From: a plasmid
DNA length: 64,000 bases
Sequence record: NZ_CP015380.1
Direction: 5' to 3' (one strand)
Part shown: positions 19,117 through 51,768 of the stretch, piece after piece
Position numbering within the stretch: the first letter of the stretch is position 1
How the letters are laid out: each line of letters begins with the position of its first letter
Notes under the pieces: generated by a model
Told to the model about the DNA's origin: nothing
Databases searched by the model: none
The model's input: the letters and a program-made list of their open reading frames with translations, nothing else
Made by a program: the position numbers and the translations under genes

Positions 19117-19977
19117 TTGAATGGGCAAAAAATGAAAATATATAAAATAACGCAATTATTTGCTGCCTCTTTAATTGCTAGTAGCTATTCAGCAATTGGA
19201 GCTAATTACTCGGCAGGTGGAGGTACTGTTAATAGTGCTTGTTCTAATGCAATTGCTATAGGACAAAATGCAAATAGTGCATGTGATAGCAGTAATCCTA
19301 ATACTATTGCAATTGGTAACAACTCTTATGCAGGGGGATCGGGCGTTGCTTTGGGCGATGGCGCAGATAGTTATTATGGATCTGTATCTTCTCAATCTAT
19401 AGCTATTGGACTCAATTCAAAAGCCAAGTCGCTAAACTCACTCGCAGCTGGTACAACTGCTGTTGCATCAGGTAATTACTCGACAGCATTGGGTGCAGCT
19501 TCAATTGCATCCGGTAATAATTCTGTAGCTTTAGGTCAGGCAGCTAACGCTTCGGCAGTTAACAGTATGGCATTGGGTACCTCCTCTGCATCTACGCTTG
19601 CTAACAGCGTAGCTCTTGGTAGCAACTCAACGGCATCAGCGGTTTCTGCAACGAGCGCAAATACCGTTGCCAACTCATTTATCAGCGGTAAAACCCTCTC
19701 AGTGGTACAGGCTCCCACTAATGGCGTGGTTGCTATCGGTAGTCGGCAGATACAGGGGGTCGCTGATGGGCAGTTATCGAGCACTTCTACCGATGCTGTA
19801 AACGGATCGCAGCTCTATCAGGTAACTTCTGGGCTAAACAGTAATATTAACGCGTTAGGATCAAGTTTTACCAGCGCACTGGGCGGCGGGGCCGCCTACA
19901 ACAGCACGACCGGCGCGTGGACCGCACCGAGTTATTCTATTCAAGGGGGAGCTATAGCAACGTTGGTAGCGCGCTGA
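19117..19977 (+). CDS. trimeric autotransporter adhesin, fragment 1: signal peptide and YadA-like head (Hep_Hag) repeats
   Basis: Head motifs NSVALG…SVALG…AIG and …DAVNGSQLY… connector. The frame is lost at the G5 run 19945-19949, where one extra G would restore …SYSIQGGSYSNVGSALTRVD…. Confidence 0.8.
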   Translation: MNGQKMKIYKITQLFAASLIASSYSAIGANYSAGGGTVNSACSNAIAIGQNANSACDSSNPNTIAIGNNSYAGGSGVALGDGADSYYGSVSSQSIAIGLNSKAKSLNSLAAGTTAVASGNYSTALGAASIASGNNSVALGQAANASAVNSMALGTSSASTLANSVALGSNSTASAVSATSANTVANSFISGKTLSVVQAPTNGVVAIGSRQIQGVADGQLSSTSTDAVNGSQLYQVTSGLNSNINALGSSFTSALGGGAAYNSTTGAWTAPSYSIQGGAIATLVAR

Positions 19978-22900
19978 CACGGGTAGATACTGGGCTGAGC
20001 GCCCTTAACGGCGGTAACGCCGGTTTGGTGCAACGTACTTCCACCAGTAACGTGGCAACAATGACCGCCACCGGAGGAACCGCGACAGCGCCGGGTACAG
20101 CGCAGAAGCTTACCAATCTGGCCGCGGGGACACTGTCTGGAACCTCCACCGACGCGGTGAACGGGAGTCAGCTGTTTGCCACCAATACCAATGTGGGAAC
20201 GAACGCCACGAACTTAGCCAATCTGGGCACCAGTACGGCTAGCGCACTGGGCGGCGGGGCTACCTATAACAGCACAACCGGTGCGTGGATCGCCCCGAGC
20301 TACACCGTACAGGGAAGCAGCTACAGCAACGTTGGTAGCGCGCTGACACGGGTAGATACTGGGCTGAGCGCCCTTAACGGCGGTAACGCCGGTTTGGTGC
20401 AACGTACTTCCACCAGTAACGTGGCAACAATGACCGCCACCGGAGGAACCGCGACAGCGCCGGGTACAGCGCAGAAGCTTACCAATCTGGCCGCGGGGAC
20501 ACTGTCTGGAACCTCCACCGACGCGGTGAACGGGAGTCAGCTGTTTGCCACCAATACCAATGTGGGAACGAACGCCACGAACTTAGCCAACCTGGGCACC
20601 AGTACGGCTAGCGCACTGGGCGGCGGGGCTGCCTATAACAGCACAACCGGTGCGTGGACCGCCCCGAGCTACACCGTACAGGGAAGCAGCTACAGCAACA
20701 TCGGTGATGCGTTTGGCGGCGTAGACGGCAGCCTAACGGCGTTAACCGACAGCATTTCGGAAGGAACCACCGGGGTGGTGCAGCGTACCGATACGGCGAA
20801 TAAAGCCGTTCTGACCGCGGCCAACGGCACCGCCGCCGCCCCCGGAGAGACGCAGACGCTGAGCAATCTGACGGCGGGCGATCTGGCGGCAGACTCCACC
20901 GACGCGGTGAACGGCAGCCAGCTGTTTGCCACTAATACCAATGTGGGGACGAATGCCACGAACTTAGCCAACCTGGGCACCAGTACCGCCAGCGCACTGG
21001 GCGGCGGGGCCGCCTACAACAGCACGACCGGTGCGTGGACCGCCCCGAGCTACACCGTACAGGGAAGCAGCTACAGCAACATCGGTGATGCGTTTGGCGG
21101 CGTAGACGGCAGCCTAACGGCGTTAACCGACAGCATTTCGGAAGGAACCACCGGGGTGGTGCAGCGTACCGATACGGCGAATAAAGCCGTCCTGACCGCG
21201 GCCAACGGCACCGCCGCCGCCCCCGGAGAGACGCAGACGCTGAGCAATCTGACGGCGGGCGATCTGGCGGCAGACTCCACCGACGCGGTGAACGGCAGCC
21301 AGCTGTTTGCCACTAATACCAATGTGGGGACGAATACCACGAACTTAGCCAACCTGGGCACCAGTACCGCCAGCGCACTGGGCGGCGGGGCCGCCTACAA
21401 CAGCTCGACCGGTGCGTGGACCGCCCCGAGCTACACCGTACAGGGAAGCAGCTACAGCAACATCGGTGATGCGTTTGGCGGCGTAGACGACAGCCTAACG
21501 GCGTTAACCGACAGCATTTCGGAAGGAACCACCGGGGTGGTGCAGCGTACCGATACGGCGAATAAAGCCGTCCTGACCGCGGCCAACGGCACCGCGGCCG
21601 CCCCCGGAGAGACGCAGACGCTGAGCAATCTGACGGCGGGCGATCTGGCGGCAGACTCCACCGACGCGGTGAACGGCAGCCAGCTGTTTGCCACTAATAC
21701 CAATGTGGGGACGAATACCACGAACTTAGCCAACCTGGGCACCAGTACCGCCAGCGCACTGGGCGGCGGGGCCGCCTACAACAGCTCGACCGGTGCGTGG
21801 ACCGCCCCGAGCTACACCGTACAGGGAAGCAGCTACAGCAACATCGGTGATGCGTTTGGCGGCGTAGACGGCAGCCTAACGGCGTTAACCGACAGCATTT
21901 CGGAAGGAACCACCGGGGTGGTGCAGCGTACCGATACGGCGAATAAAGCCGTCCTGACCGCGGCCAACGGCACCGCGGCCGCCCCCGGAGAGACGCAGAC
22001 GCTGAGCAATCTGACGGCGGGCGATCTGGCGGCAGACTCCACCGACGCGGTGAACGGCAGCCAGCTGTTTGCCACTAATACCAATGTGGGGACGAATACC
22101 ACGAACTTAGCCAACCTGGGCACCAGTACCGCCAGCGCACTGGGCGGCGGGGCCGCCTACAACAGCTCGACCGGTGCGTGGACCGCCCCGAGCTACACCG
22201 TACAGGGAAGCAGCTACAGCAACATCGGTGATGCGTTTGGCGGCGTAGACGGCAGCCTAACGGCGTTAACCGACAGCATTTCGGAAGGAACCACCGGGGT
22301 GGTGCAGCGTACCGATACGGCGAATAAAGCCGTCCTGACCGCGGCCAACGGCACCGCGGCCGCCCCCGGAGAGACGCAGACGCTGAGCAATCTGACGGCG
22401 GGCGATCTGGCGGCAGACTCCACCGACGCGGTGAACGGCAGCCAGCTGTTTGCCACTAATACCAATGTGGGGACGAATACCACGAACTTAGCCAACCTGG
22501 GCACTAGTACCGCCAGCGCACTGGGCGGCGGGGCCGCCTACAACAGCTCGACCGGTGCGTGGACCGCCCCGAGCTACACCGTACAGGGAAGCAGCTACAG
22601 CAACATCGGTGATGCGTTTGGCGGCGTAGACGGCAGCCTAACGGCGTTAACCGACAGCATTTCGGAAGGAACCACCGGGGTGGTGCAGCGTACCGATACG
22701 GCGAATAAAGCCGTCCTGACCGCGGCCAACGGCACCGCGGCCGCCCCCGGAGAGACGCAGACGCTGAGCAATCTGACGGCGGGCGATCTGGCGGCAGACT
22801 CCACCGACGCGGTGAACGGCAGCCAGCTGTTTGCCACTAATACCAATGTGGGGACGAATACCACGAACTTAGCCAACCTGGGCACCAGTACCGCCAGCGC

Positions 22901-23760
22901 ACTGGGCGGCGGGGCCGCCTACAACAGCACGACCGGTGCGTGGACCGCCCCGAGCTACACCGTACAGGGAAGCAGCTACAGCAACATCGGTGATGCGTTT
23001 GGCGGCGTAGACGGCAGCCTAACGGCGTTAACCGACAGCATTTCGGAAGGAACCACCGGGGTGGTGCAGCGTACCGATACGGCGAATAAAGCCGTCCTGA
23101 CCGCGGCCAACGGCACCGCGGCCGCCCCCGGAGAGACGCAGACGCTGAGCAATCTGACGGCGGGCGATCTGGCGGCAGACTCCACCGACGCGGTGAACGG
23201 CAGCCAGCTGTTTGCCACTAATACCAATGTGGGGACGAATACCACGAACTTAGCCAACCTGGGCACTAGTACCGCCAGCGCACTGGGCGGCGGGGCCGCC
23301 TACAACAGCTCGACCGGTGCGTGGACCGCCCCGAGCTACACCGTACAGGGAAGCAGCTACAGCAACATCGGTGATGCGTTTGGCGGCGTAGACGGCAGCC
23401 TAACGGCGTTAACCGACAGCATTTCGGAAGGAACCACCGGGGTGGTGCAGCGTACCGATACGGCGAATAAAGCCGTCCTGACCGCGGCCAACGGCACCGC
23501 CGCCGCCCCCGGAGAGACGCAGACGCTGAGCAATCTGACGGCGGGCGATCTGGCGGCAGACTCCACCGACGCGGTGAACGGCAGCCAGCTGTTTGCCACT
23601 AATACCAATGTGGGGACGAATACCACGAACTTAGCCAACCTGGGCACCAGTACCGCCAGCGCACTGGGCGGCGGGGCCGCCTACAACAGCACGACCGGTG
23701 CGTGGACCGCCCCGAGCTACACCGTACAGGGAAGCAGCTACAGCAACATCGGTGATGCGT
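19780..23760 (+). repeat. coding tandem repeats: 2 x 369 bp then about 9 x 381 bp, copies differing by only a few SNPs
   Basis: Spurious minus-strand ORFs recur at an exact 381-bp spacing (20690, 21071, … 23357). Direct comparison of copies shows only NAT/NTT and STT/SST codon differences. Confidence 0.9.
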
Positions 23761-24023
23761 TTGGCGGCGTAGACAGCAGCCTGACCGCGCTTAACAATAG
23801 CGTGTCGTCCGGTAGCACGGGGGTCGTGCAGCGTACCAGTACGGCTAACGTCGCAACCTTGACCGCAGCCGGTGGAACAGCCTCTGCACCGGGAGAGGCC
23901 CAGAAGCTAACTAATCTGGCTGAGGGGAAACTGACCGCGGATTCAACGGATGCCGTCAACGGCAGCCAGTTATACGCTGTAGCTGATCAGGTTTCTAAAA
24001 TACTACCGACATTGCTGGCCTGA
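19917..24023 (+). CDS. trimeric autotransporter adhesin, fragment 2: stalk made of about 11 near-identical tandem repeats
   Basis: Repeating unit …SYSNIGDAFGGVDGSLTALTDSISEGTTGVVQRTDTANKAVLTAANGTAAAPGETQTLSNLTAGDLAADSTDAVNGSQLFATNTNVGTN…. The frame is lost at A4 23997-24000, where one extra A gives …VSKNTTDIAGLTTIVNN…. Confidence 0.8.
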   Translation: MDRTELFYSRGSYSNVGSALTRVDTGLSALNGGNAGLVQRTSTSNVATMTATGGTATAPGTAQKLTNLAAGTLSGTSTDAVNGSQLFATNTNVGTNATNLANLGTSTASALGGGATYNSTTGAWIAPSYTVQGSSYSNVGSALTRVDTGLSALNGGNAGLVQRTSTSNVATMTATGGTATAPGTAQKLTNLAAGTLSGTSTDAVNGSQLFATNTNVGTNATNLANLGTSTASALGGGAAYNSTTGAWTAPSYTVQGSSYSNIGDAFGGVDGSLTALTDSISEGTTGVVQRTDTANKAVLTAANGTAAAPGETQTLSNLTAGDLAADSTDAVNGSQLFATNTNVGTNATNLANLGTSTASALGGGAAYNSTTGAWTAPSYTVQGSSYSNIGDAFGGVDGSLTALTDSISEGTTGVVQRTDTANKAVLTAANGTAAAPGETQTLSNLTAGDLAADSTDAVNGSQLFATNTNVGTNTTNLANLGTSTASALGGGAAYNSSTGAWTAPSYTVQGSSYSNIGDAFGGVDDSLTALTDSISEGTTGVVQRTDTANKAVLTAANGTAAAPGETQTLSNLTAGDLAADSTDAVNGSQLFATNTNVGTNTTNLANLGTSTASALGGGAAYNSSTGAWTAPSYTVQGSSYSNIGDAFGGVDGSLTALTDSISEGTTGVVQRTDTANKAVLTAANGTAAAPGETQTLSNLTAGDLAADSTDAVNGSQLFATNTNVGTNTTNLANLGTSTASALGGGAAYNSSTGAWTAPSYTVQGSSYSNIGDAFGGVDGSLTALTDSISEGTTGVVQRTDTANKAVLTAANGTAAAPGETQTLSNLTAGDLAADSTDAVNGSQLFATNTNVGTNTTNLANLGTSTASALGGGAAYNSSTGAWTAPSYTVQGSSYSNIGDAFGGVDGSLTALTDSISEGTTGVVQRTDTANKAVLTAANGTAAAPGETQTLSNLTAGDLAADSTDAVNGSQLFATNTNVGTNTTNLANLGTSTASALGGGAAYNSTTGAWTAPSYTVQGSSYSNIGDAFGGVDGSLTALTDSISEGTTGVVQRTDTANKAVLTAANGTAAAPGETQTLSNLTAGDLAADSTDAVNGSQLFATNTNVGTNTTNLANLGTSTASALGGGAAYNSSTGAWTAPSYTVQGSSYSNIGDAFGGVDGSLTALTDSISEGTTGVVQRTDTANKAVLTAANGTAAAPGETQTLSNLTAGDLAADSTDAVNGSQLFATNTNVGTNTTNLANLGTSTASALGGGAAYNSTTGAWTAPSYTVQGSSYSNIGDAFGGVDSSLTALNNSVSSGSTGVVQRTSTANVATLTAAGGTASAPGEAQKLTNLAEGKLTADSTDAVNGSQLYAVADQVSKILPTLLA

Positions 24024-36257: not shown

Positions 36258-37268
36258 TCATGCCGCCTTACATGCGCTACGCGCATCTAAAGACAGATAT
36301 TCAGCATCAAACGGCTTCTGTGTTTTCAAGACCCCATAGCACCAGTGAACAAGCTTGCGCATCAGTGCACCAATAGCACACATTTTGACCTTGCCACGCT
36401 GGCATAAACGCTTATACATCGCCTTCATCATTGGGTTAAATCTCAGACCGCACAACGATGCTAGATACAGTTTTGCCCTGACTTTCGGTGGCCCAATTTT
36501 TGACAATCTCGGTTTCCCTCTGACCGATGTGCCGGAGTTTTTTTCGACAGGAACGACGCCCAGAAAGGCAGCTACCTGCTCTGCTGTGTCGAAATGATGA
36601 CTCCGCAGGATAACCAGCATATTCAGTCCTAACTGAAAACCCACGGATTTTATCGATGTCAGCAGGTCAAAATCCTTCTTTAATTCAGGATGCTGGTCGA
36701 AATGGGTCAGGATAAGAGCGTCCAGATGCTCCAGCTCTGCACTCAGATTACGAAGCACATTTTCGATCGATTCAGCAACAATAGGAGGGATGTCCGTTGC
36801 CCTGCATTTTTCCAGTCTGTTTTTTGCGCGGGTACAGTCTGTGACGAATGCATCGCGGCAACGCAGAAGTGCGTTGAGATAGCGGACATTTTCCGGTTGG
36901 TGGTTCCCATGGCTCCGGCTCCTTAAGTGCCCCATAACAGGCCAGCATATAAGCGTCCACTTTGTCATTTTTTGTCAGAATATCCATGCCGCGGGCAAAT
37001 TCTCTGCTGCGGTGTGAGTTGCAAGCGATACCTTTGCTCCGGCATTGTGCAGACCGTAAGCCAGCGATTCGTGATAAACCCCGGTGGCTTCCATGATGAT
37101 ATGAACATCTTCTGGGATGCTGTGCTGCTTATGGAGCCAGTTGATTACAACACTGGCCGCATTGAAATCATTTTTAAGCTTGCGGGATTTTACCTTGCCT
37201 TTAACGCCTTCACGCAGCAGGCACAAATCCAAAGTTTTCTTACTGACATCAATACCTAACTGAAACAT
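36258..37268 (-). mobile_element. IS110-family transposase gene, split by two frameshifts into three ORF pieces
   Basis: N-terminal DEDD domain (MFQLGIDVSKKTLDLCLL…), middle piece …KNDKVDAYMLACYGAL…, C-terminal Transposase_20-like region (…LTSIKSVGFQLGLNMLVI…SKIGPPKVRAKLYLAS…). Confidence 0.8.
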
Positions 37269-37659
37269 AGGTGTATTCTCCTCACTGAACCATCACGCCT
37301 ATTATCCTTGTACATGCAGAGTCATCGCTCTTGGCAACAGTTCAATGTTAATGCTGGCGTGAAAGGTGAAGCGGAGGGCTTTTACTGCAAATCAAGGTTC
37401 GTGCCATTTAGGGGGGGACAAGCTCACTCTGCCTCATATGATGGTAGCTAACCACCATATGTTTATTACATACAAGGGGTGGGAAGGGGATTGAGGATAC
37501 CTATCAACGCAGGGCGGCTACGCCGCGTTTCCGGCGCCATTTAACGTCCAACAACGTCTGGCGCCTCCATGCCGCAAAGCGGCATCAGTCAGATGGAATA
37601 TTCCACCGAATGTGCTACTATCCGTGTAAGTTACACATCTTATCTGGAGTATTTCTATC

Positions 37660-38210: not shown

Positions 38211-38415
38211 AGCTCTGCCGTCAAACGATATGCGTTCGCTTGATGGTTAGGAAATTGGATCCGTTTTTTCCTTTAGATCAGAGGTAAAAGAAGGTGATAG
38301 GGCCATGAGTTTCATCCGCTCAGGTAGAACCTCCCTAAGCTGCTAATAACCATCGCTTCTTTTCTAGCTGCTGATGGCGTTCGGCCAGCAAGGGGGCCAT
38401 TTGGAAAACGGAGCC

Positions 38416-38453
38416 CATTACTAGGGGACTGAAGCCCAACCGTACGAAAACGT
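38416..38453 (+). repeat. Tn3-family 38-bp terminal inverted repeat (left end, reading inward)
   Basis: GGGGACTGAAGCCCAACCGTACGAAAACGTACGCTAAG. Compare the Tn3 repeat GGGGTCTGACGCTCAGTGGAACGAAAACTCACGTTAAG. A minus-strand ORF fragment ends with its TAA stop just inside this repeat, as tnpA does in Tn3-family elements. Confidence 0.7.
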
Positions 38454-38734
38454 ACGCTAAGTACGTTTATTGAGCTAAAACTATCGAGATCCTGTAGCCC
38501 CATTTTTTCGCTTTTACTACTGCCGGTTCTGCTTTTCCGGCCTGCAATACCACCAGTTGTTCGTTATGCGCTTTCAACGCCATTAATTCACCAGTCATCG
38601 TCGCTTTAGATTCCCTTGCCTCAACAGCCTCTTTCAAGGCTTTATCCAGTGCTGTTTTCCTGGCCTTTGCGGGTGGACTTAACCTGAAAAAAGTCGTTAA
38701 AAATAGTTACCCTTCATTCTTTGATAAAATCTCA

Positions 38735-39529
38735 ATGCTGTCTCTGTATTTGCTTCTGGTGTTTATGGGGGCCACGGTTGGTGGGATCCCTGATATTAAG
38801 GGGCAACTCTCCGTCGCGGGCTTTAATGATCTGATCATTGCGTCAGATACATCGGTGATAACCTTTATTACCCTGGTCGCTGTAGGCAAGCTGAGTGGAG
38901 AAAAACGGCCTCCCCGTAATGCTTCACACCTGCAGAACAGTCTTTCAAATCTGCTGTCAATTTTTCTTCCCACGCTCTCTCAGTTCATCACGGTGGCGGC
39001 CGGCTTTATACTGGGGTTAAAAGGGTTAATGCCCGACCTGTACGCAGACCACATTATCTCTTTGCTTCTGTATCTGTTGATATTTTCCGTCGCGGTAAAA
39101 TTATCGTATTCGAATATTAGTATAAAACGCGTGCTGTTAAATAAAACCAACCTGTGGCTAACGTTGGTCACGATATTGTCATCATTTATGGGAGCCGCGC
39201 TGGCATCATTGTTTATCAACGTACCGCTCCATGAAGTTCTGGCGATCGGATCCGGTTTTGTATGGTATACCCTTTCTGGAACGCTGTTCACAAAAATGGG
39301 CAATCCTCTGTTAGGAACCGTGGCTTTCTTAAGCGAACTGTTTCGCGGGATATCTGCGCTGATGCTCATTCCGCTGATTTCGCGGTTCGGTTACAGCACC
39401 GCTACCATCGCTATATCCGGTTCAACGGCTCTTGATGTGACGCTGCCGGTTGCGCGACTTATATCCCTTTCTTCTATTACCTTTAAAGAGGCCTTTTGGC
39501 AGCGGAGAAAGGACAGTAGAAAAACTTAA
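38735..39529 (+). CDS. polytopic membrane protein (possibly DUF340/LysO-like exporter)
   Basis: 264 aa, about 8 predicted transmembrane helices in two repeated halves. Family assignment is tentative. Confidence 0.4.
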   Translation: MLSLYLLLVFMGATVGGIPDIKGQLSVAGFNDLIIASDTSVITFITLVAVGKLSGEKRPPRNASHLQNSLSNLLSIFLPTLSQFITVAAGFILGLKGLMPDLYADHIISLLLYLLIFSVAVKLSYSNISIKRVLLNKTNLWLTLVTILSSFMGAALASLFINVPLHEVLAIGSGFVWYTLSGTLFTKMGNPLLGTVAFLSELFRGISALMLIPLISRFGYSTATIAISGSTALDVTLPVARLISLSSITFKEAFWQRRKDSRKT

Positions 39530-39686
39530 CCACGGCGATTGACCTGATTTCATCGACTAATGACCTGTGAGCATGTCACGGCCCATCCCTTCCTCCTCTT
39601 ATAGTAAAGCTACTCGCAGCCACCCAGCCTGATTATGCTAAACGCAGTAGCTGGGCTTCAAATCTAATGAATCACTGGAGCAAATA

Positions 39687-40466
39687 ATGAAATTAACGCA
39701 AATCCGCAATGCCACTCTCTTGCTGCAATATGCCGGTAAAAAATTCCTTATCGACCCAATGCTCGCAGAAAAGGAAGCCTGGGATGGTTTTGCCGGAAGT
39801 GCCCGCCCGCACCTGCGTAATCCCATGGTTGCCTTGCCTGTGCCTGTAGAAGATTTACTGGCTGTTGATGCCGTTATCCTGACCCACACTCATACCGATC
39901 ATTGGGACGAAGCAGCACAGCAGTCTGTTCCTAAAGACATGCTTATTTATACGCAGGATGAAAAAGATGCGGCGCTGATCCGTTCTCAGGGCTTTCTTAA
40001 CGTCCGCGTTCTGAAAGATGAAAATCATTTTGTTGACGGACTGACGATTTATAAAACTGACGGCCAGCACGGCAGTAACGAACTATACGCCGATACCCAA
40101 TTGGGTGATTTACTGGGTGACGCATGCGGTCTGGTCTTCACGCATCATGATGAAAAAACGCTTTATATCGCCGGTGATACCGTCTGGGTCAAGCCTTATA
40201 TAAAAAGCCTTCAGCGCTTCAAGCCGGAGATTGTGGTACTCAATACCGGCTATGCGGTCAACGACCTGTACGGTCCGATCATCATGGGAAAAGAAGATAC
40301 CTTACGCACACTTAAGATGTTGCCGACTGCGACCATCGTGGCGTCTCACATGGAATCAATCAATCATTGCCTCCTTACCCGCGCAGAATTACGCGAGTTC
40401 TCACTTGAACATGGCATTGAAGATAAAGTCCTTATTCCTGCAGACGGTGAAACAATGTCTTTCTGA
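39687..40466 (+). CDS. MBL-fold metallo-hydrolase
   Basis: THTHTDHWD (HxHxDH) motif with downstream His and Asp ligands. 259 aa. Confidence 0.8.
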   Translation: MKLTQIRNATLLLQYAGKKFLIDPMLAEKEAWDGFAGSARPHLRNPMVALPVPVEDLLAVDAVILTHTHTDHWDEAAQQSVPKDMLIYTQDEKDAALIRSQGFLNVRVLKDENHFVDGLTIYKTDGQHGSNELYADTQLGDLLGDACGLVFTHHDEKTLYIAGDTVWVKPYIKSLQRFKPEIVVLNTGYAVNDLYGPIIMGKEDTLRTLKMLPTATIVASHMESINHCLLTRAELREFSLEHGIEDKVLIPADGETMSF

Positions 40467-40594
40467 TAAGCCAATAAGATTTATTTGGGCGAAAAATGTA
40501 TTCCGACAGGTCACCTGTTATCCTCTGGTCAATCGGAATCAGCAATACTGCCGCCGGTGATCTGGTGGCTCTCCTTTACGGCAAGGTTAACGTT

Positions 40595-41569
40595 ATGTCT
40601 GTATTGACGGTCGCCGTGATTGCCACGGCCGGATTCAGCCCTTTTCACTTTTCAGTCCCCTGTATTATTTTCGGACAGTCTATGCCGCAGTCGGATTTAT
40701 TCCGCGTGGAAATTTGTGCTGAAAAACCGGGCGTCGTCCTGTCAGATATTGGCCTGTCAATCAATGTGAAACATGGCCTCGAGCTACTTGACGTCGCAGA
40801 CATTGTTATCGTGCCCTACTGGAATCATCCGGAAGAGCGACCTTCTCAGGCGCTACTTGACAAGCTGATAAGCGCATGGCAGCGCGGCGCAGAAGTGGTT
40901 GGGCTTTGTCTCGGTGCATACGTGCTGGCCTATTCTGGGTTACTGGATCAGCGCCGGGCGGTAACACACTGGGAGTTCGAACAGGACTTCGTTGAACGAT
41001 TTCCAGCCGTTTGTCTGGACAGCAACTCGCTGTATACCAGCGATGAACGCCTTATTACCTCTGCCGGCACCGCCGCCGGTATTGACTGCTGTCTTAATAT
41101 TATCCGGGATCATTACGGTTCAGCGGTTGCTAACCGTGTAGCAAGAAGAATGGTGGTTCCTCCTTATCGGGAAGGCGGCCAGGCACAGTTTATTGAACGC
41201 CCGGTCCCTGTATCTACGCGGGACGGAAAAATGAACGAGCTGATGGACTACCTGCGTCGCAATCTGGACAAGCCGCACGACCTCGACTCGCTGGCGGGAT
41301 TTGCCAGCATGAGCAGGCGGACACTTACCCGTCATTTTTTTAAGGCAACCGGGACAACGCTGGGTGGCTGGCTAAACGCTGAGCGTCTTCAGAGAAGCCA
41401 GGAGCTGCTGGAAACTACGGACAGCAGTATTGAAAACGTGTCTGATATTGCCGGGTTTCAGTCGCCAATCTCTTTCCGCCAGAGTTTTAAGGCGAAATTC
41501 AGCGTCAGCCCAAGCGAATGGCGCCGGGCATTTCGCGGTCCTGTACCAGTTGATCACGGAAAGGCCTGA
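40595..41569 (+). CDS. AraC-family transcriptional regulator with N-terminal DJ-1/PfpI (GlxA-type) domain
   Basis: Probable start MSVLTVAVIATAGFSPFHFSVP…. C-terminal AraC helix-turn-helix (…RRTLTRHFFKATGTTLGGWLNAERLQRSQELL…). Confidence 0.8.
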   Translation: MSVLTVAVIATAGFSPFHFSVPCIIFGQSMPQSDLFRVEICAEKPGVVLSDIGLSINVKHGLELLDVADIVIVPYWNHPEERPSQALLDKLISAWQRGAEVVGLCLGAYVLAYSGLLDQRRAVTHWEFEQDFVERFPAVCLDSNSLYTSDERLITSAGTAAGIDCCLNIIRDHYGSAVANRVARRMVVPPYREGGQAQFIERPVPVSTRDGKMNELMDYLRRNLDKPHDLDSLAGFASMSRRTLTRHFFKATGTTLGGWLNAERLQRSQELLETTDSSIENVSDIAGFQSPISFRQSFKAKFSVSPSEWRRAFRGPVPVDHGKA

Positions 41570-41899
41570 GCGGAAGCTAAGAAATCATAATAATTTTAGA
41601 AAACTGGCAGCCTGATACCGGAATAAAAATTTGTTCCTGAAATGAGTGAACTGGCTCATTCTTTAAGGGGGCCGCTTGGAAAACGAATCTATGGCCACTC
41701 CCGTTTTTGCAACACCGATTTTGACAATAAGTTGGCTTGCTTGAATCTATCCGGCGTCTGAATGGGATTTTATTTCCGCGCCTGATGAACCTCAGAAAAT
41801 ATACGGCTTCAATGAGCCTTTCCGTTTTACAGCTTCCTCAACAGGCCGATAGGCCGTTAGTATCATCAATATTAGTATTCGCAAAACCAGATCAGTGAT

Positions 41900-42860
41900 T
41901 CTTTAAACCGGTGTATTTCTGCCGTTATGCTACATAAGTTTGCTATCGTGCAGTTAAGGCCTAGGCTATTCTGGCTAGCTTGTTTGCTAGAGCACAAGTG
42001 ACGACAAAGTTCCTTTTCCGGCACAGTAAATCCCTGACCCAATCGGCCAATTTTCCAGACTGGTGTTCCAGTTTTTGTATGAATACCCTGGCACATTGAA
42101 CCAACAAAGTTCGGATCTTTTTGTTACCTCGCTTACTAATTCCCAGCAATGTCGTCCGACCTCCCGTCGCCAATCTCAGTTGAAATAGTATTCGCTGTCA
42201 GTGTTCCGACGCCGGGAATGCTCAGCAAGCGCTGTCCAATCTCATCTTCGTCCAACTTTCGTTTCAACTGGGATTCAAAATCTTTAATCTGCTCAATAAG
42301 ATAGTGATAATGCTGTTATAATTTCAGCAATAACTGGCTGAGGTAAAAAGGCAAACTATTGTCCTCAGTTGGCTAATAACGGCAGTTCCTCGGGGGAACG
42401 CTAATGCCAAATTCCAGCAGAAAAGCATGCATTTGATTACCTTATCCTGAACCAGGGATTAACGGATAGGGTGCAGAGCCCGCATTGCCTGCTGAGATTC
42501 CGTTCTAGGTTGCACAAAACGCATAGATGGACGCGATGCAGCTTCACAAATAGCTTCGGCGTCGAAAAAGTCGTTTTTGTTACTTTTAACGAATGGACGG
42601 ACAAATTGTGGTGATATCAGCTTTGGAAAATGCCCCAATTCTTCCAACTTGCGAGCCATAAAGTGAGAGCCTCCGCAGGCTTCCATTGCGATGGTTGTAG
42701 CAGGGCATGTCGCCAAAAATTCGATTAACCTTGGCCGGGTAAATTTTTTACGGTAAACAGCCTTGCCGCGACGATCCTAGCAATGAATATGGAAAGAGTT
42801 TTTACCCAGATCAATACCAATGAGCGCAATGTTTTCCATGATAGTTCTCCGAATGAAAGC
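41900..42860 (-). mobile_element. IS110-family transposase remnant (in-frame stop plus internal deletion)
   Basis: Minus strand MENIALIGIDLGKNSFHIHC*…, …MEACGGSHFMARKLEELGHF…KSNKNDFFDAEAICEAASRP…, and a C-terminal fragment …GISKRGNKKIRTLLVQCA…. Confidence 0.6.
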
Positions 42861-43043
42861 CTGTCCTCAGCACAGTAGCGGGAAGGAGGGAGTGGCCATC
42901 TCATTAAATATCCTACTCTAAGGCGATTTCTTAAGCAGACATGACAGGCAGCTCTGAGCGAGGAGCGGACGCTGCCCGACAGACCTGATGTGCAACTGAG
43001 CCGGTTAGAAAGCACCAGTTTGGTTAAAACACATACTTAGCGT

Positions 43044-43081
43044 ACGTTTCCGTACGGTTGGGCTTCAGACCCCTACTAGCG
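43044..43081 (-). repeat. Tn3-family 38-bp terminal inverted repeat (right end)
   Basis: The reverse complement reads GGGGTCTGAAGCCCAACCGTACGGAAACGTACGCTAAG. It matches 38416-38453 at 36 of 38 positions, in inverted orientation. Confidence 0.7.
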
Positions 43082-50048: not shown

Positions 50049-51768
50049 TATAACTCCTACCATATAAATTAATTAAATAGCTTATTTTCTAAAAGGTATA
50101 TTCACGATTTTCTTTTAGCAAGTAGTTTATAGTGGCTACTAATTAACCTATATAGTAGAATTGCATTCAAATTATGATTAATATGCGCAAGTGAAATAAT
50201 AGCTGTGTAAAGTTAACAAAATATCTCATGGAAAAACTATTTCTTATCATTTTTGATGTATGAATAAACAATTTTTTAGCATGTGTGTTATTTAAGGAGT
50301 AAGTGAAACCAAAAATGTATTTTTCTTGGTGTATGGGATCGAGGGACAGTGATGTAAAAAAGCAAGTTATGGAGATAACTTATTGTTTGTAATGAAATTA
50401 ATTGATGTTGACTCTCCATTCAGAATGTCATCCGATAACGAAAACGTATAGTGGTCTAACATATTTATATAACTATGTTTAAGCGGGGATAACCTCGCCA
50501 GATGTACCTCCTACGGTATTTCACCCCACCGTTCACTATTCTCCAGCCAGAGATCTCGACGGAACAAAGAATCCTGAAAACGTTCCAGCAGGCACAACGA
50601 ATAAACCCGCGCGTAGAATCCGGCCATCTCTGCCATAGACTAGGCGTTCTAGGGGCCAGAAGTGATTTGCTCTGGAACATCGTCGAGCATGCGTATTTTT
50701 GAGCCTTTCAGCTCGGTCAGATAATGGATTATGGACAATGATTGTTGGCCCGCAGGGCCGGCTGAAAGTGTAAGTCACGCAACATCGCGGACAAGTGCTG
50801 GCAAAATGCCATATCTGATAACCCAGAAAACCTAGTTATGAAGCCTTGATTGGCCAACATGAATGTGGCGCCTAGAAGCCATATCTTCTCAGAACAATGA
50901 CCTCGACTGATTAATGCGTTGGTTTGAAGGTGTTTCTGGGGAGAGGCAATGTTAAGCAACATCACCCTAAAAAGGACATTATTTGAATATTAGTCTAATG
51001 CGACAGAGTACAACGTATGTATTCTAATATCTGAGTAATGAATTTAAGCTATGAATTAGGAGTACTCTCATTTATACTACCTATGCTTAATTAAATTGTA
51101 TCTTAAAAATTATTGAATTAAGTTTAACAAATGTTCATGATTAAATGTTAGATGTATGATATGAAGGCTGAGATAGAATAGTTTACATTATTTTACAAAT
51201 GGTTCTTAACGTTAAAATATTCGTTATATATTGTTTTGTTAATGTGTGTTTTTTATTTGTTTTTATGATTTTCTACTTTTCAGATAAGATAAAAAATAAA
51301 CAAATGAAAAACGACTGTAATTAATTTTAAAATTCAGACAAACAAATAGAATATAACTTTCTTTTTTTTACAAAATCCTGTTACTTATCTAAAAACAAAA
51401 AAAAATAGCATCTTATCCTGTTTTTATCAAATTAATGGCCTGTATATTTGTTTTTTGTTTTTAATCATTATAATAAGCTAAGCATGTGTCCCTTATGTCT
51501 ATTGCATATATAGGATCGAGAAAACAATGACAATACTGAGCTATATCCTCCCATGATATAGTGATGCTTCATGCTATAAGTATCAGATTGTTTTTCATTA
51601 CAGAAACTTGCTATAGGGATATATATTTTTATCTATGTTCATACTCTGGTGAGTGTATATGTAAATCGTAACTTCAATGTCAAAGAATGGGGCAGATGGT
51701 TTTAATTTTAAAATGCATTTTTCTTACTTAATATTCATTATTCTACATTATTAGCTATAGAGTTTTAT

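Follow-up and report, generated by a model that had tools for sequence, protein, structure and literature searches.

Does a stretch of plasmid DNA that carries the terminal repeats of a Tn3-family transposon, and no transposase between them, represent a cassette that foreign transposases can move, or the remains of a transposon that once moved by itself? The question is raised by a locus in a 64-kb window (the whole stretch of DNA that was analyzed, 64,000 nucleotides of the plasmid record NZ_CP015380.1), which the preliminary description had presented as a 4.67-kb non-autonomous passenger cassette. The two 38-bp inverted repeats reported there are real and match each other at 36 of 38 positions, but both had been placed 8 bp off (at 38416–38453 and 43044–43081). 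The left copy of the repeat, here called IR-A, lies at 38424–38461 on the plus strand (GGGGACTGAAGCCCAACCGTACGAAAACGTACGCTAAG), and its inward-facing partner, also found by pattern match, lies at 43036–43073 on the minus strand (GGGGTCTGAAGCCCAACCGTACGGAAACGTACGCTAAG); the distance between their outer edges is 4,650 bp rather than 4.67 kb. Both repeats begin with GGGG and end with TAAG, as is typical of the Tn3 family. The left repeat matched the search pattern with 0 mismatches (0 expected by chance), the pattern gave 0 matches over 100 shuffles of the sequence, and no IR-A copy beyond these two was found in the window with up to 3 mismatches allowed. Compared with the consensus from 24 genome loci, the left repeat has a private A instead of T at position 5, and the right repeat has a rare G instead of A at position 24. 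A perfect 5-bp duplication, TACTA, can be read directly at both outer edges (38419–38423 and 43074–43078). A match at all five flanking positions has a probability of 1/1024 by chance, and its location directly outside both repeats indicates that a single 4,650-bp Tn3-family unit was inserted at this site.

The claim that this unit contains neither transposase nor resolvase was borne out. In tblastn searches with six TnpA proteins of the matching lineage and one from a 9.2-kb transposon described below, no match was observed within 38424–43073, and no intact Tn3-family tnpA was found in the 64-kb window. Resolvase queries from two related transposon lineages likewise found no match in the window, and blastn with complete relatives matched the termini only, with no res or tnpR. 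The element keeps its two ends, which are all the cis sites that a Tn3-family transposase requires, and is thus formally non-autonomous; its mobilization in trans would be possible in principle. Since res is missing, however, such mobilization would stop at the cointegrate stage, from which only homologous recombination by the host could release the element.

From which transposon do the two ends derive? At 24 genome loci, elements with a tnpA have IR-A at their boundaries, and the repeat flanks intact Tn3 transposases of ~1,050 aa (PF01526 + DUF4158) in L024, L028 and L022. The autonomous elements include those of the Serratia sp. L9 plasmid CP192593 (L030, 5.4 kb), Photorhabdus namnaonensis (L024) and Pantoea (L028), and complete elements with 5-bp duplications are seen in Serratia L030 (TGCTA) and Salmonella arizonae L016/L018 (GTTAA). 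Like the autonomous elements, the window element lies on a plasmid in Enterobacterales and is flanked by a 5-bp duplication; its 38-bp repeats are identical or nearly identical to theirs, and the similarity extends over 15–28 nt of subterminal sequence on each side. Unlike them, it has no tnpA, tnpR or res, and its interior is foreign. Full-length relatives align with only 52–66 nt at each of its ends. On the left, the subterminal sequence at 38462–38482 (plus strand) matches the passenger-side end in L031 and L025, and the left end as a whole aligns over 52–59 nt with L031 165–216 and L025 1638–1695. On the right, alignment to relatives identifies the 28 nt at 43008–43035 (minus strand) as tnpA-proximal. 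Of the original right end, no more than 66 nt are kept, and these stop before the point at which intact relatives have the tnpA stop codon, ~50 nt inside the repeat. In the Buttiauxella L031 and Xenorhabdus L019 elements, the left subterminal sequence has its counterpart at the passenger end and the right one at the tnpA-proximal end; the two are the complementary end types of one transposon lineage.

Next to the left repeat is an open reading frame of 56 aa (38467–38637, minus strand), which had been suggested to be the last remnant of tnpA. Its stop codon lies 6 nt inward of the inner edge of the repeat, outside the repeat itself. By tblastn, the reading frame belongs to a 3′ remnant (the last 59 codons) of a gene for a KfrA-type DNA-binding protein (38467–38679, minus strand): window positions 38679–38503 correspond to residues 303–361 of a 361-aa pPrAq1 protein that carries KfrA_N (PF11740), at 85% identity. 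No TnpA matched the frame by tblastn, and the TnpA proteins of the lineage end in ...KGQLRPLKQAEESDEWPL; the tnpA identity was consequently rejected. No tnpA codons are left at either end of the element. In pPrAq1 (Pectobacteriaceae/Brenneria IncFII plasmids; CP129115, CP128860), a truncated copy has the same repeat, then the full kfrA gene, and then a resolvase 97–99% identical to those of L019, L030 and L031. The shared kfrA tail is 93–95% identical in nucleotides, and each copy lies downstream of an IncFII repA, at a distance of a few kb; the flanking sequences differ, so the pPrAq1 insertion site is independent. On the other hand, pPrAq1 has a full kfrA and tnpR and no tnpA or second repeat, whereas the window element has neither gene. 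In the pPrAq1 plasmids, kfrA is a passenger gene adjoining the repeat.

The kfrA remnant is joined to lysO at 38652–38664 (junction J1), within the sequence TTTKCCTGG, as seen in a three-way comparison of the window with L002 (kfrA) and L050 (lysO); J1 is an illegitimate join at a 9-nt microhomology. The gene content that follows is as first described: LysO/DUF340, an MBL-fold hydrolase, a GlxA-type regulator and broken IS110-family fragments. The lysO gene (PF03956, Lys_export; 38652–39529, plus strand) has lost its start codon with the rest of its first 28 nt, and a deletion of ~70 nt near the 3′ end alters the C-terminus; it is a probable pseudogene. The MBL-fold hydrolase (39687–40466, plus strand; 259 aa) is intact and 96.9% identical to the copy in a 9.2-kb transposon of pKAM645_1. 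Also intact is the DJ-1/PfpI + AraC-HTH (GlxA-type) regulator (40595–41569, plus strand), which is 96% identical to the copy in that transposon and has 324 aa counted from the conserved start, the frame being open from 40496. Over the whole of 38652–41665, nucleotide identity to the 9.2-kb transposon is 94% and the gene order is the same.

This 9.2-kb Tn3-family transposon is carried by pKAM645_1, pMO17_54 and Drgb3. In pKAM645_1, it is 9,231 bp long, with its own repeats (GGGGTTTGAGGGCCATTGATGTAAAAAACCACGCTAAG) and a TATAT duplication, and it contains MFS, isochorismatase, lysO, MBL, araC, tnpR and tnpA genes; the TnpA of the IR-A lineage is 64.6% identical to its TnpA. Of this transposon, the window has no more than an internal piece, with a truncated lysO and without its repeats, MFS, isochorismatase and tnpR/tnpA. 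The segment is a piece of the passenger region of a different transposon. What had been described as a passenger cassette is not native cargo; the genes are another transposon's fragment, with lysO cut at both ends and illegitimate junctions. The alignment ends at 41665–41666 (junction J2), where the stop-codon end of tnpR in the 9.2-kb transposon meets the outer edge of a third terminal repeat exactly.

This third Tn3-family repeat, IR-B, is split. Sequence comparison places its outer half, GGGGGCCGCTTGGAAAACG, at 41667–41685 (plus strand) and its inner half, ATTAAATATCCTACTCTAAG, at 42903–42922 (plus strand), where homology to L001 ends. Between them, at 41686–42902 (minus strand), is a decayed IS4321-like element of the IS1111 group of the IS110 family, and its two flanks rejoin as a Tn3-type repeat, seen uninterrupted in L061 284–321. 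The copy measures ~1,217 bp, ~110 bp less than the 1,327 bp of IS4321, to which it is 91–93% identical in nucleotides, with several deletions and frameshifts, and it keeps the subterminal repeats ATGGCCACTCCC / GGGAGTGGCCAT. Unlike that of IS4321, its transposase frame is broken, into reading frames of 85, 70 and 43 aa that match PF01548 + PF02371, two of the three below the Pfam cut-off. The transposase gene would be present but dead. According to the account of Partridge & Hall (2003) as cited in PMC11187229, IS4321 and IS5075 target the 38-bp terminal repeats of Tn21-family transposons; the window copy likewise sits in a Tn3-type terminal repeat, directly after GAAAACG. The ~52 nt after IR-B (42923–42974, plus strand) are subterminal sequence of that transposon type, found after IR-B in >1,000 plasmids. 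The next 33 nt (42975–43007, the J3 region, which separates the right end from the IR-B fragment) had no homologue on either side.

How could such a mosaic come to stand between the two ends of one transposon? We consider it probable that a complete IR-A transposon inserted once and was then gutted in place, leaving an inert, vertically inherited relic. A complete Tn3-subgroup transposon, with the layout IR, kfrA passenger, res, tnpR, tnpA, IR, would have inserted once between ccdB and a FUSC-family gene of an F-like plasmid, duplicating TACTA. All that lay between the 59 terminal kfrA codons and the 66 terminal nt of the right end would have been lost and replaced by the truncated lysO, MBL and araC fragment and by the terminal ~90 nt of the third Tn3-type element, whose repeat had already been struck by the IS4321-like insertion sequence. 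Most economically, the third transposon would have arrived as an unresolved cointegrate, or as an insertion bringing neighboring donor DNA; two illegitimate deletions, one at the 9-nt microhomology, would have followed, and the relic would have passed on vertically with the plasmid. The anatomy, the duplication, the source of each piece and the fixation at a single site are shown; the sequence of the steps, and that the decay took place in situ, we infer. Both repeats outlasted two large deletions, one ending 66 nt from a tip, which is somewhat fortunate for decay in place; the survival of both is the pattern expected under post-deletion selection for transposability.

The distribution of the element also bears on this question. 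A comparison with related replicons, which the preliminary description had called for, found the element in ~25 related contigs, always at the same TACTA site and 4,650 bp long, and at least 99.8% identical in those examined, its divergence being that of the flanks. Neither an empty site nor a full transposon at TACTA, as an intermediate, was found. No second-site copy was found in PLSDB, GTDB representative genomes, JGI metagenomes or the ~25 related contigs, and a junction-specific scan of the JGI metagenomes gave one contig, at the same site only. Among PLSDB backbones, that of Hafnia alvei pA23BA comes closest, at 92%; sampling of the host lineage is poor, so the absence of other copies is weak evidence.

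Could the mosaic instead have been built elsewhere and moved here as a tnpA-less cassette by an IR-A-lineage transposase acting in trans, which made the TACTA duplication and might still mobilize it? This is possible, though we favor it clearly less. Both repeats are near-consensus and correctly oriented, the duplication is clean, and both ends are intact although deletions came so close to one tip. Experiments have established that non-autonomous derivatives of Tn3 can be mobilized in trans, as Tn1000 does with IS101 and ISSod9-type transposases do with TIME-COMPs (PMC13367494, PMC4133298), and other IR-A-bounded elements with absent or truncated tnpA exist in Rouxiella (L025, 2.7 kb) and Buttiauxella (L031, 4.3 kb). 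However, these two have no target-site duplications, and the reading requires one event more than decay in place. There is also no donor copy in the collections searched, no intact tnpA in the window and no res site, and each repeat has a substitution that few or no other members of the family show. That the unit is an active res-less cassette today, moved by an IR-A-lineage transposase with its cointegrates resolved by RecA, we regard as improbable; if it were, an MBL-hydrolase/GlxA-regulator pair would be shuttled between plasmids of environmental Enterobacterales.

It is very unlikely that each repeat comes from a separate, unrelated transposon that was truncated independently, with the TACTA match a coincidence. 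At least three transposon lineages do contribute to the mosaic interior, and an orphan half-repeat lies just beyond the left end. Against this, the five-of-five flanking identity, the inward-facing 36/38 repeats and the pairing of a passenger end with a tnpA end of one lineage all argue for a single transposon type, and this objection to the original proposal fails. Like IS101, TIMEs and TIME-COMPs, the window element has Tn3-type repeats, 5-bp direct repeats and no transposase, and would depend on one in trans. TIMEs are 50–500 bp long, and in TIME-COMPs a complete TIME stands at either end (Szuplewska 2014, PMC4133298; Gomi & Yano 2026, PMC13367494), whereas the window element is a 4.65-kb deletion/substitution derivative with no sign of movement, seen at one site only (~25 contigs, one JGI contig, PLSDB) rather than at several with different 5-bp repeats. 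A composite with a miniature Tn3-derived element at each end, the pair mobilizing the DNA between, is the least credible reading, despite the duplication and the missing transposase, both also typical of TIME-COMPs: there are only two IR-A copies in the window with up to 3 mismatches allowed, neither is accompanied by a partner within a few hundred bp, and the ends of the 4,650-bp element are single repeats followed by gene remnants.

The element is thus an ordinary defective Tn3-family transposon, and its history one of ordinary plasmid decay. Its value lies mostly in annotation, as a clear illustration of the cassette-like shell that nested Tn3-family insertions, together with deletions, leave behind. 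For annotators, an open reading frame that ends beside a Tn3 repeat is not always tnpA, the lysO here is probably a pseudogene, and an IS4321-like copy flags a concealed third terminal repeat. The analysis also defines two transposon lineages that are only generically annotated in public records: the IR-A lineage, with its variable passengers, and the 9.2-kb MFS-isochorismatase-lysO-MBL-araC transposon.

The 38-bp Tn3-type terminal repeat that bounds the element, here called IR-A (GGGGNCTGAAGCCCAANCGTACGNAAACGTACGCTAAG), occurs in exactly two copies in the window, at 38424–38461 on the plus strand and at 43036–43073 on the minus strand, and shuffled sequence contained none. The preliminary description had placed each repeat 8 bp too far out. 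The two copies differ at two positions (A or T at position 5, A or G at position 24), and each carries one substitution, the A5 and G24 variants, seen seldom or never elsewhere in the family. Directly outside each repeat lies TACTA (38419–38423 and 43074–43078; left flank ...CATTACTA, right flank TACTAGCG...), a perfect 5-bp direct repeat for which the chance of an accidental match is 1/1024. Direct repeats of 5 bp are the size made by Tn3-family transposition, and the preliminary description had proposed looking for them at these ends. Taken together, the repeats and the flanking TACTA indicate that the 4,650-bp element between ccdB and the FUSC-family gene is the product of one insertion event.

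Are the two repeats the proper ends of the same transposon? When one genome per species was scanned, IR-A turned up at 24 loci, nearly all in Enterobacterales. An intact transposase of 1,012–1,052 aa with DUF4158 and DDE_Tnp_Tn3 lies next to it in each of Photorhabdus (L024), Pantoea (L028) and a MAG (L022). Complete IR-A-bounded elements are present on a Serratia plasmid (L030; 5,426 bp, 5-bp duplication TGCTA) and in Salmonella arizonae (L016/L018; 5-bp duplication GTTAA). The layout in complete relatives is repeat, passenger, res, tnpR, tnpA, repeat, and the subterminal sequences differ between the two ends. The left end in the window is of the passenger-side type, matching L031 and L025 over 52–59 nt, and the right end is of the tnpA-side type, matching L019 and L023 over 66 nt. 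Therefore, the two repeats belong together as the true ends of a single transposon of this lineage and do not come from two independently truncated transposons, as had been considered earlier.

Other units with this repeat type were also seen. The 2.7-kb unit of Rouxiella silvae (L025, 1638–4352) has neither tnpA nor tnpR and encodes nothing but a 546-aa ABC-type ATPase, and the 4.3-kb unit of Buttiauxella sp. B2 (L031, 165–4425) encodes the same ATPase, tnpR and a truncated 408-aa tnpA; a matching 5-bp duplication was found on neither. The enterobacterial-type repeat is also present in Chlamydiota-assigned L022 (Simkaniaceae MAG JBFWSA010000008.1), adjoining the intact 1,012-aa transposase, and in Bacteroidota-assigned L033 (Chryseobacterium contig CACSKA010000018.1), which could be due to mis-binning, contamination or long-range transfer.

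The short minus-strand ORF inside the left repeat (38467–38637), earlier thought to be a possible tnpA tail, turned out to be the tail of KfrA. It corresponds, with 85% identity, to residues 303–361 of a 361-aa protein, KfrA_N by Pfam, encoded by the pPrAq1 plasmids (IncFII plasmids of Pectobacteriaceae/Brenneria). In pPrAq1 of strain CE90, this repeat precedes the full kfrA, after which comes a serine resolvase, transcribed divergently and with 97–99% identity to those of L019, L030 and L031. Because the repeat, the full kfrA and the lineage resolvase occur together there, kfrA is a passenger gene of one lineage member, and the window keeps only its last 59 codons. The lineage transposases end in ...KGQLRPLKQAEESDEWPL (...DEWPL), ~50 nt inward from the repeat of the opposite end; since the right end in the window keeps just 28 subterminal nt, no tnpA codon is left. 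For the same reason, the codons before the TAA at ~43030 were excluded as a TnpA C-terminus. Inside the element, none of seven transposase and two resolvase queries gave a tblastn match, in agreement with the preliminary description, and blastn of complete relatives matched at the termini only. The res site is absent as well. By its anatomy, the element can be classed as a defective Tn3-family transposon.

What fills the space between these ends? The stretch 38652–41665 is 94% identical to a segment from the interior of another Tn3-family transposon, which in Klebsiella pKAM645_1 is 9,231 bp long, is bounded by GGGGTTTGAGGGCCATTGATGTAAAAAACCACGCTAAG repeats with a TATAT duplication, and carries MFS, isochorismatase, lysO, MBL, araC, tnpR and tnpA genes. 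The MBL hydrolase and the DJ-1/PfpI-AraC regulator are intact in the window (96.9% and 96% aa identity, respectively, to the source copies). On the other hand, the first 28 nt of lysO are missing and ~70 nt close to its 3' end have been deleted, and this damage at both ends makes it a probable pseudogene. At the left junction (GCTGTTTTCCTGGCCTTTGCGGGTGGAC), antisense kfrA is fused to lysO at a TTTKCCTGG microhomology; the right junction (41665/41666) corresponds to the stop-codon end of tnpR in the source transposon and abuts the GGGGG outer end of a third Tn3-type repeat, IR-B.

IR-B is split by an IS4321-like copy (41686–42902; 91–93% identity, ~110 bp shorter than IS4321, with multiple frameshifts) that retains the subterminal repeats ATGGCCACTCCC / GGGAGTGGCCAT. 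The sequences on either side of it, GGGGGCCGCTTGGAAAACG (41667–41685) and ATTAAATATCCTACTCTAAG (42903–42922), form a Tn3-type terminal repeat when joined, and E. coli pEC291_1 (L061, 284–321) has such a repeat without the interruption. According to Partridge & Hall 2003, as cited in PMC11187229, IS4321 and IS5075 target exactly such terminal repeats. Past IR-B, ~52 nt (42923–42974) are common to >1,000 plasmids, and 33 unassigned nt (42975–43007) separate this stretch from the 66-nt right end. In pCP131-IncHI1, 3 kb separates the cassette from an IS4321 copy of the same orientation, but given the ubiquity of IS4321, this plasmid was set aside as a candidate ancestor.

Half-repeats of this kind were also observed elsewhere. 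In pEC291_1, an IS4321 copy sits between a Tn21-type half-repeat, GGGGGCACCTCAGAAAACG, and one of the other type, ATTAAATATCCTACGTTAAG (L061, 1163–1181 and 2509–2528), a mismatch that suggests recombination between IS4321 copies in different transposon ends. In the window, 38397–38417 (GGGGGCCATTTGGAAAACGGA), separated by 1 bp from the left TACTA and running in the same direction as the copy at 41667, is an orphan half-repeat, with 17/19 matches to the outer half of IR-B over 38397–38415. Insertion of the element into a relic terminal repeat was rejected, as the expected inner half was no better than shuffles (p ~0.3).

Related contigs were gathered by exact-protein look-ups of the FUSC protein, CcdB and the MBL hydrolase. 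In all of the ~25 contigs returned, from isolates and metagenomes, the 4,650-bp element occupies the same TACTA site and is at least 99.8% identical, a similarity equal to that of the flanks. In plasmid OZ061316.1, an IS66-associated rearrangement has taken away the left repeat together with the rest of the first 271 nt. A junction-specific scan of JGI metagenomes gave one contig, with the same site. PLSDB yielded neither a second copy nor an empty site: the reconstructed uninterrupted site (...CATTACTAGCGTTATTT...) matched only a conserved 90-nt stretch downstream of ccdB. The three protein look-ups returned a filled site every time. The nearest backbone, Hafnia alvei pA23BA (92% over tra/rep), is without the ccdAB-FUSC region.

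Several other features of the window were noted. The ~90 nt of non-coding sequence just downstream of ccdB (38240–38330) are 83–90% conserved and intergenic in Yersinia, Serratia, Erwinia and Arsenophonus plasmids; an Rfam scan of the window returned no families, there or elsewhere. Upstream of ccdAB, a second, unrelated IS110-family remnant (36258–37500; ~81% identity with copies in Pantoea and E. coli) has been split by an IS91-family element in some sister plasmids and replaced in others, marking this flank as a rearrangement hot spot. The 64-kb window holds no intact Tn3-family transposase, and the sole other trace is a separate, degraded relic at 50335–50822. It consists of a degenerate terminal repeat, GGGATCGAGGGACAGTGATGTAAAAAAGCAAGTTATGG (~50337–50374), which does not match those of the element, and two minus-strand tnpA fragments with 57–69% aa and 75–83% nt identity to the transposase of the 9.2-kb transposon. 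Weak tblastn matches every 381 nt at 20595–23444, inside a 1,368-aa ORF (19917–24023), indicate ~127-aa tandem repeats in a large surface or adhesin-like protein.

How might the element have reached its present state? Decay in place is the likeliest history, and we hold it with moderate confidence. A complete kfrA-tnpR-tnpA transposon would have inserted at TACTA, an IR-B transposon would then have brought in adjacent donor DNA, most simply via an unresolved cointegrate, and two illegitimate deletions would have eliminated the transposition module along with the bulk of the incoming DNA; this order is inferred, not observed. The preliminary description had suggested an element that could be mobilized in trans, and arrival in an already tnpA-less state is a possible but rather doubtful alternative: such mobilization is well documented for IS101 and TIME-COMPs (PMC13367494, PMC4133298) and the host group is thinly sampled, but it takes one event more than decay in place and no second copy supports it. 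Under either history, because res is gone, any future movement would need a transposase supplied in trans and host recombination to resolve the cointegrates. The biology is that of ordinary plasmid mosaicism, and the element adds one more example to a known kind.
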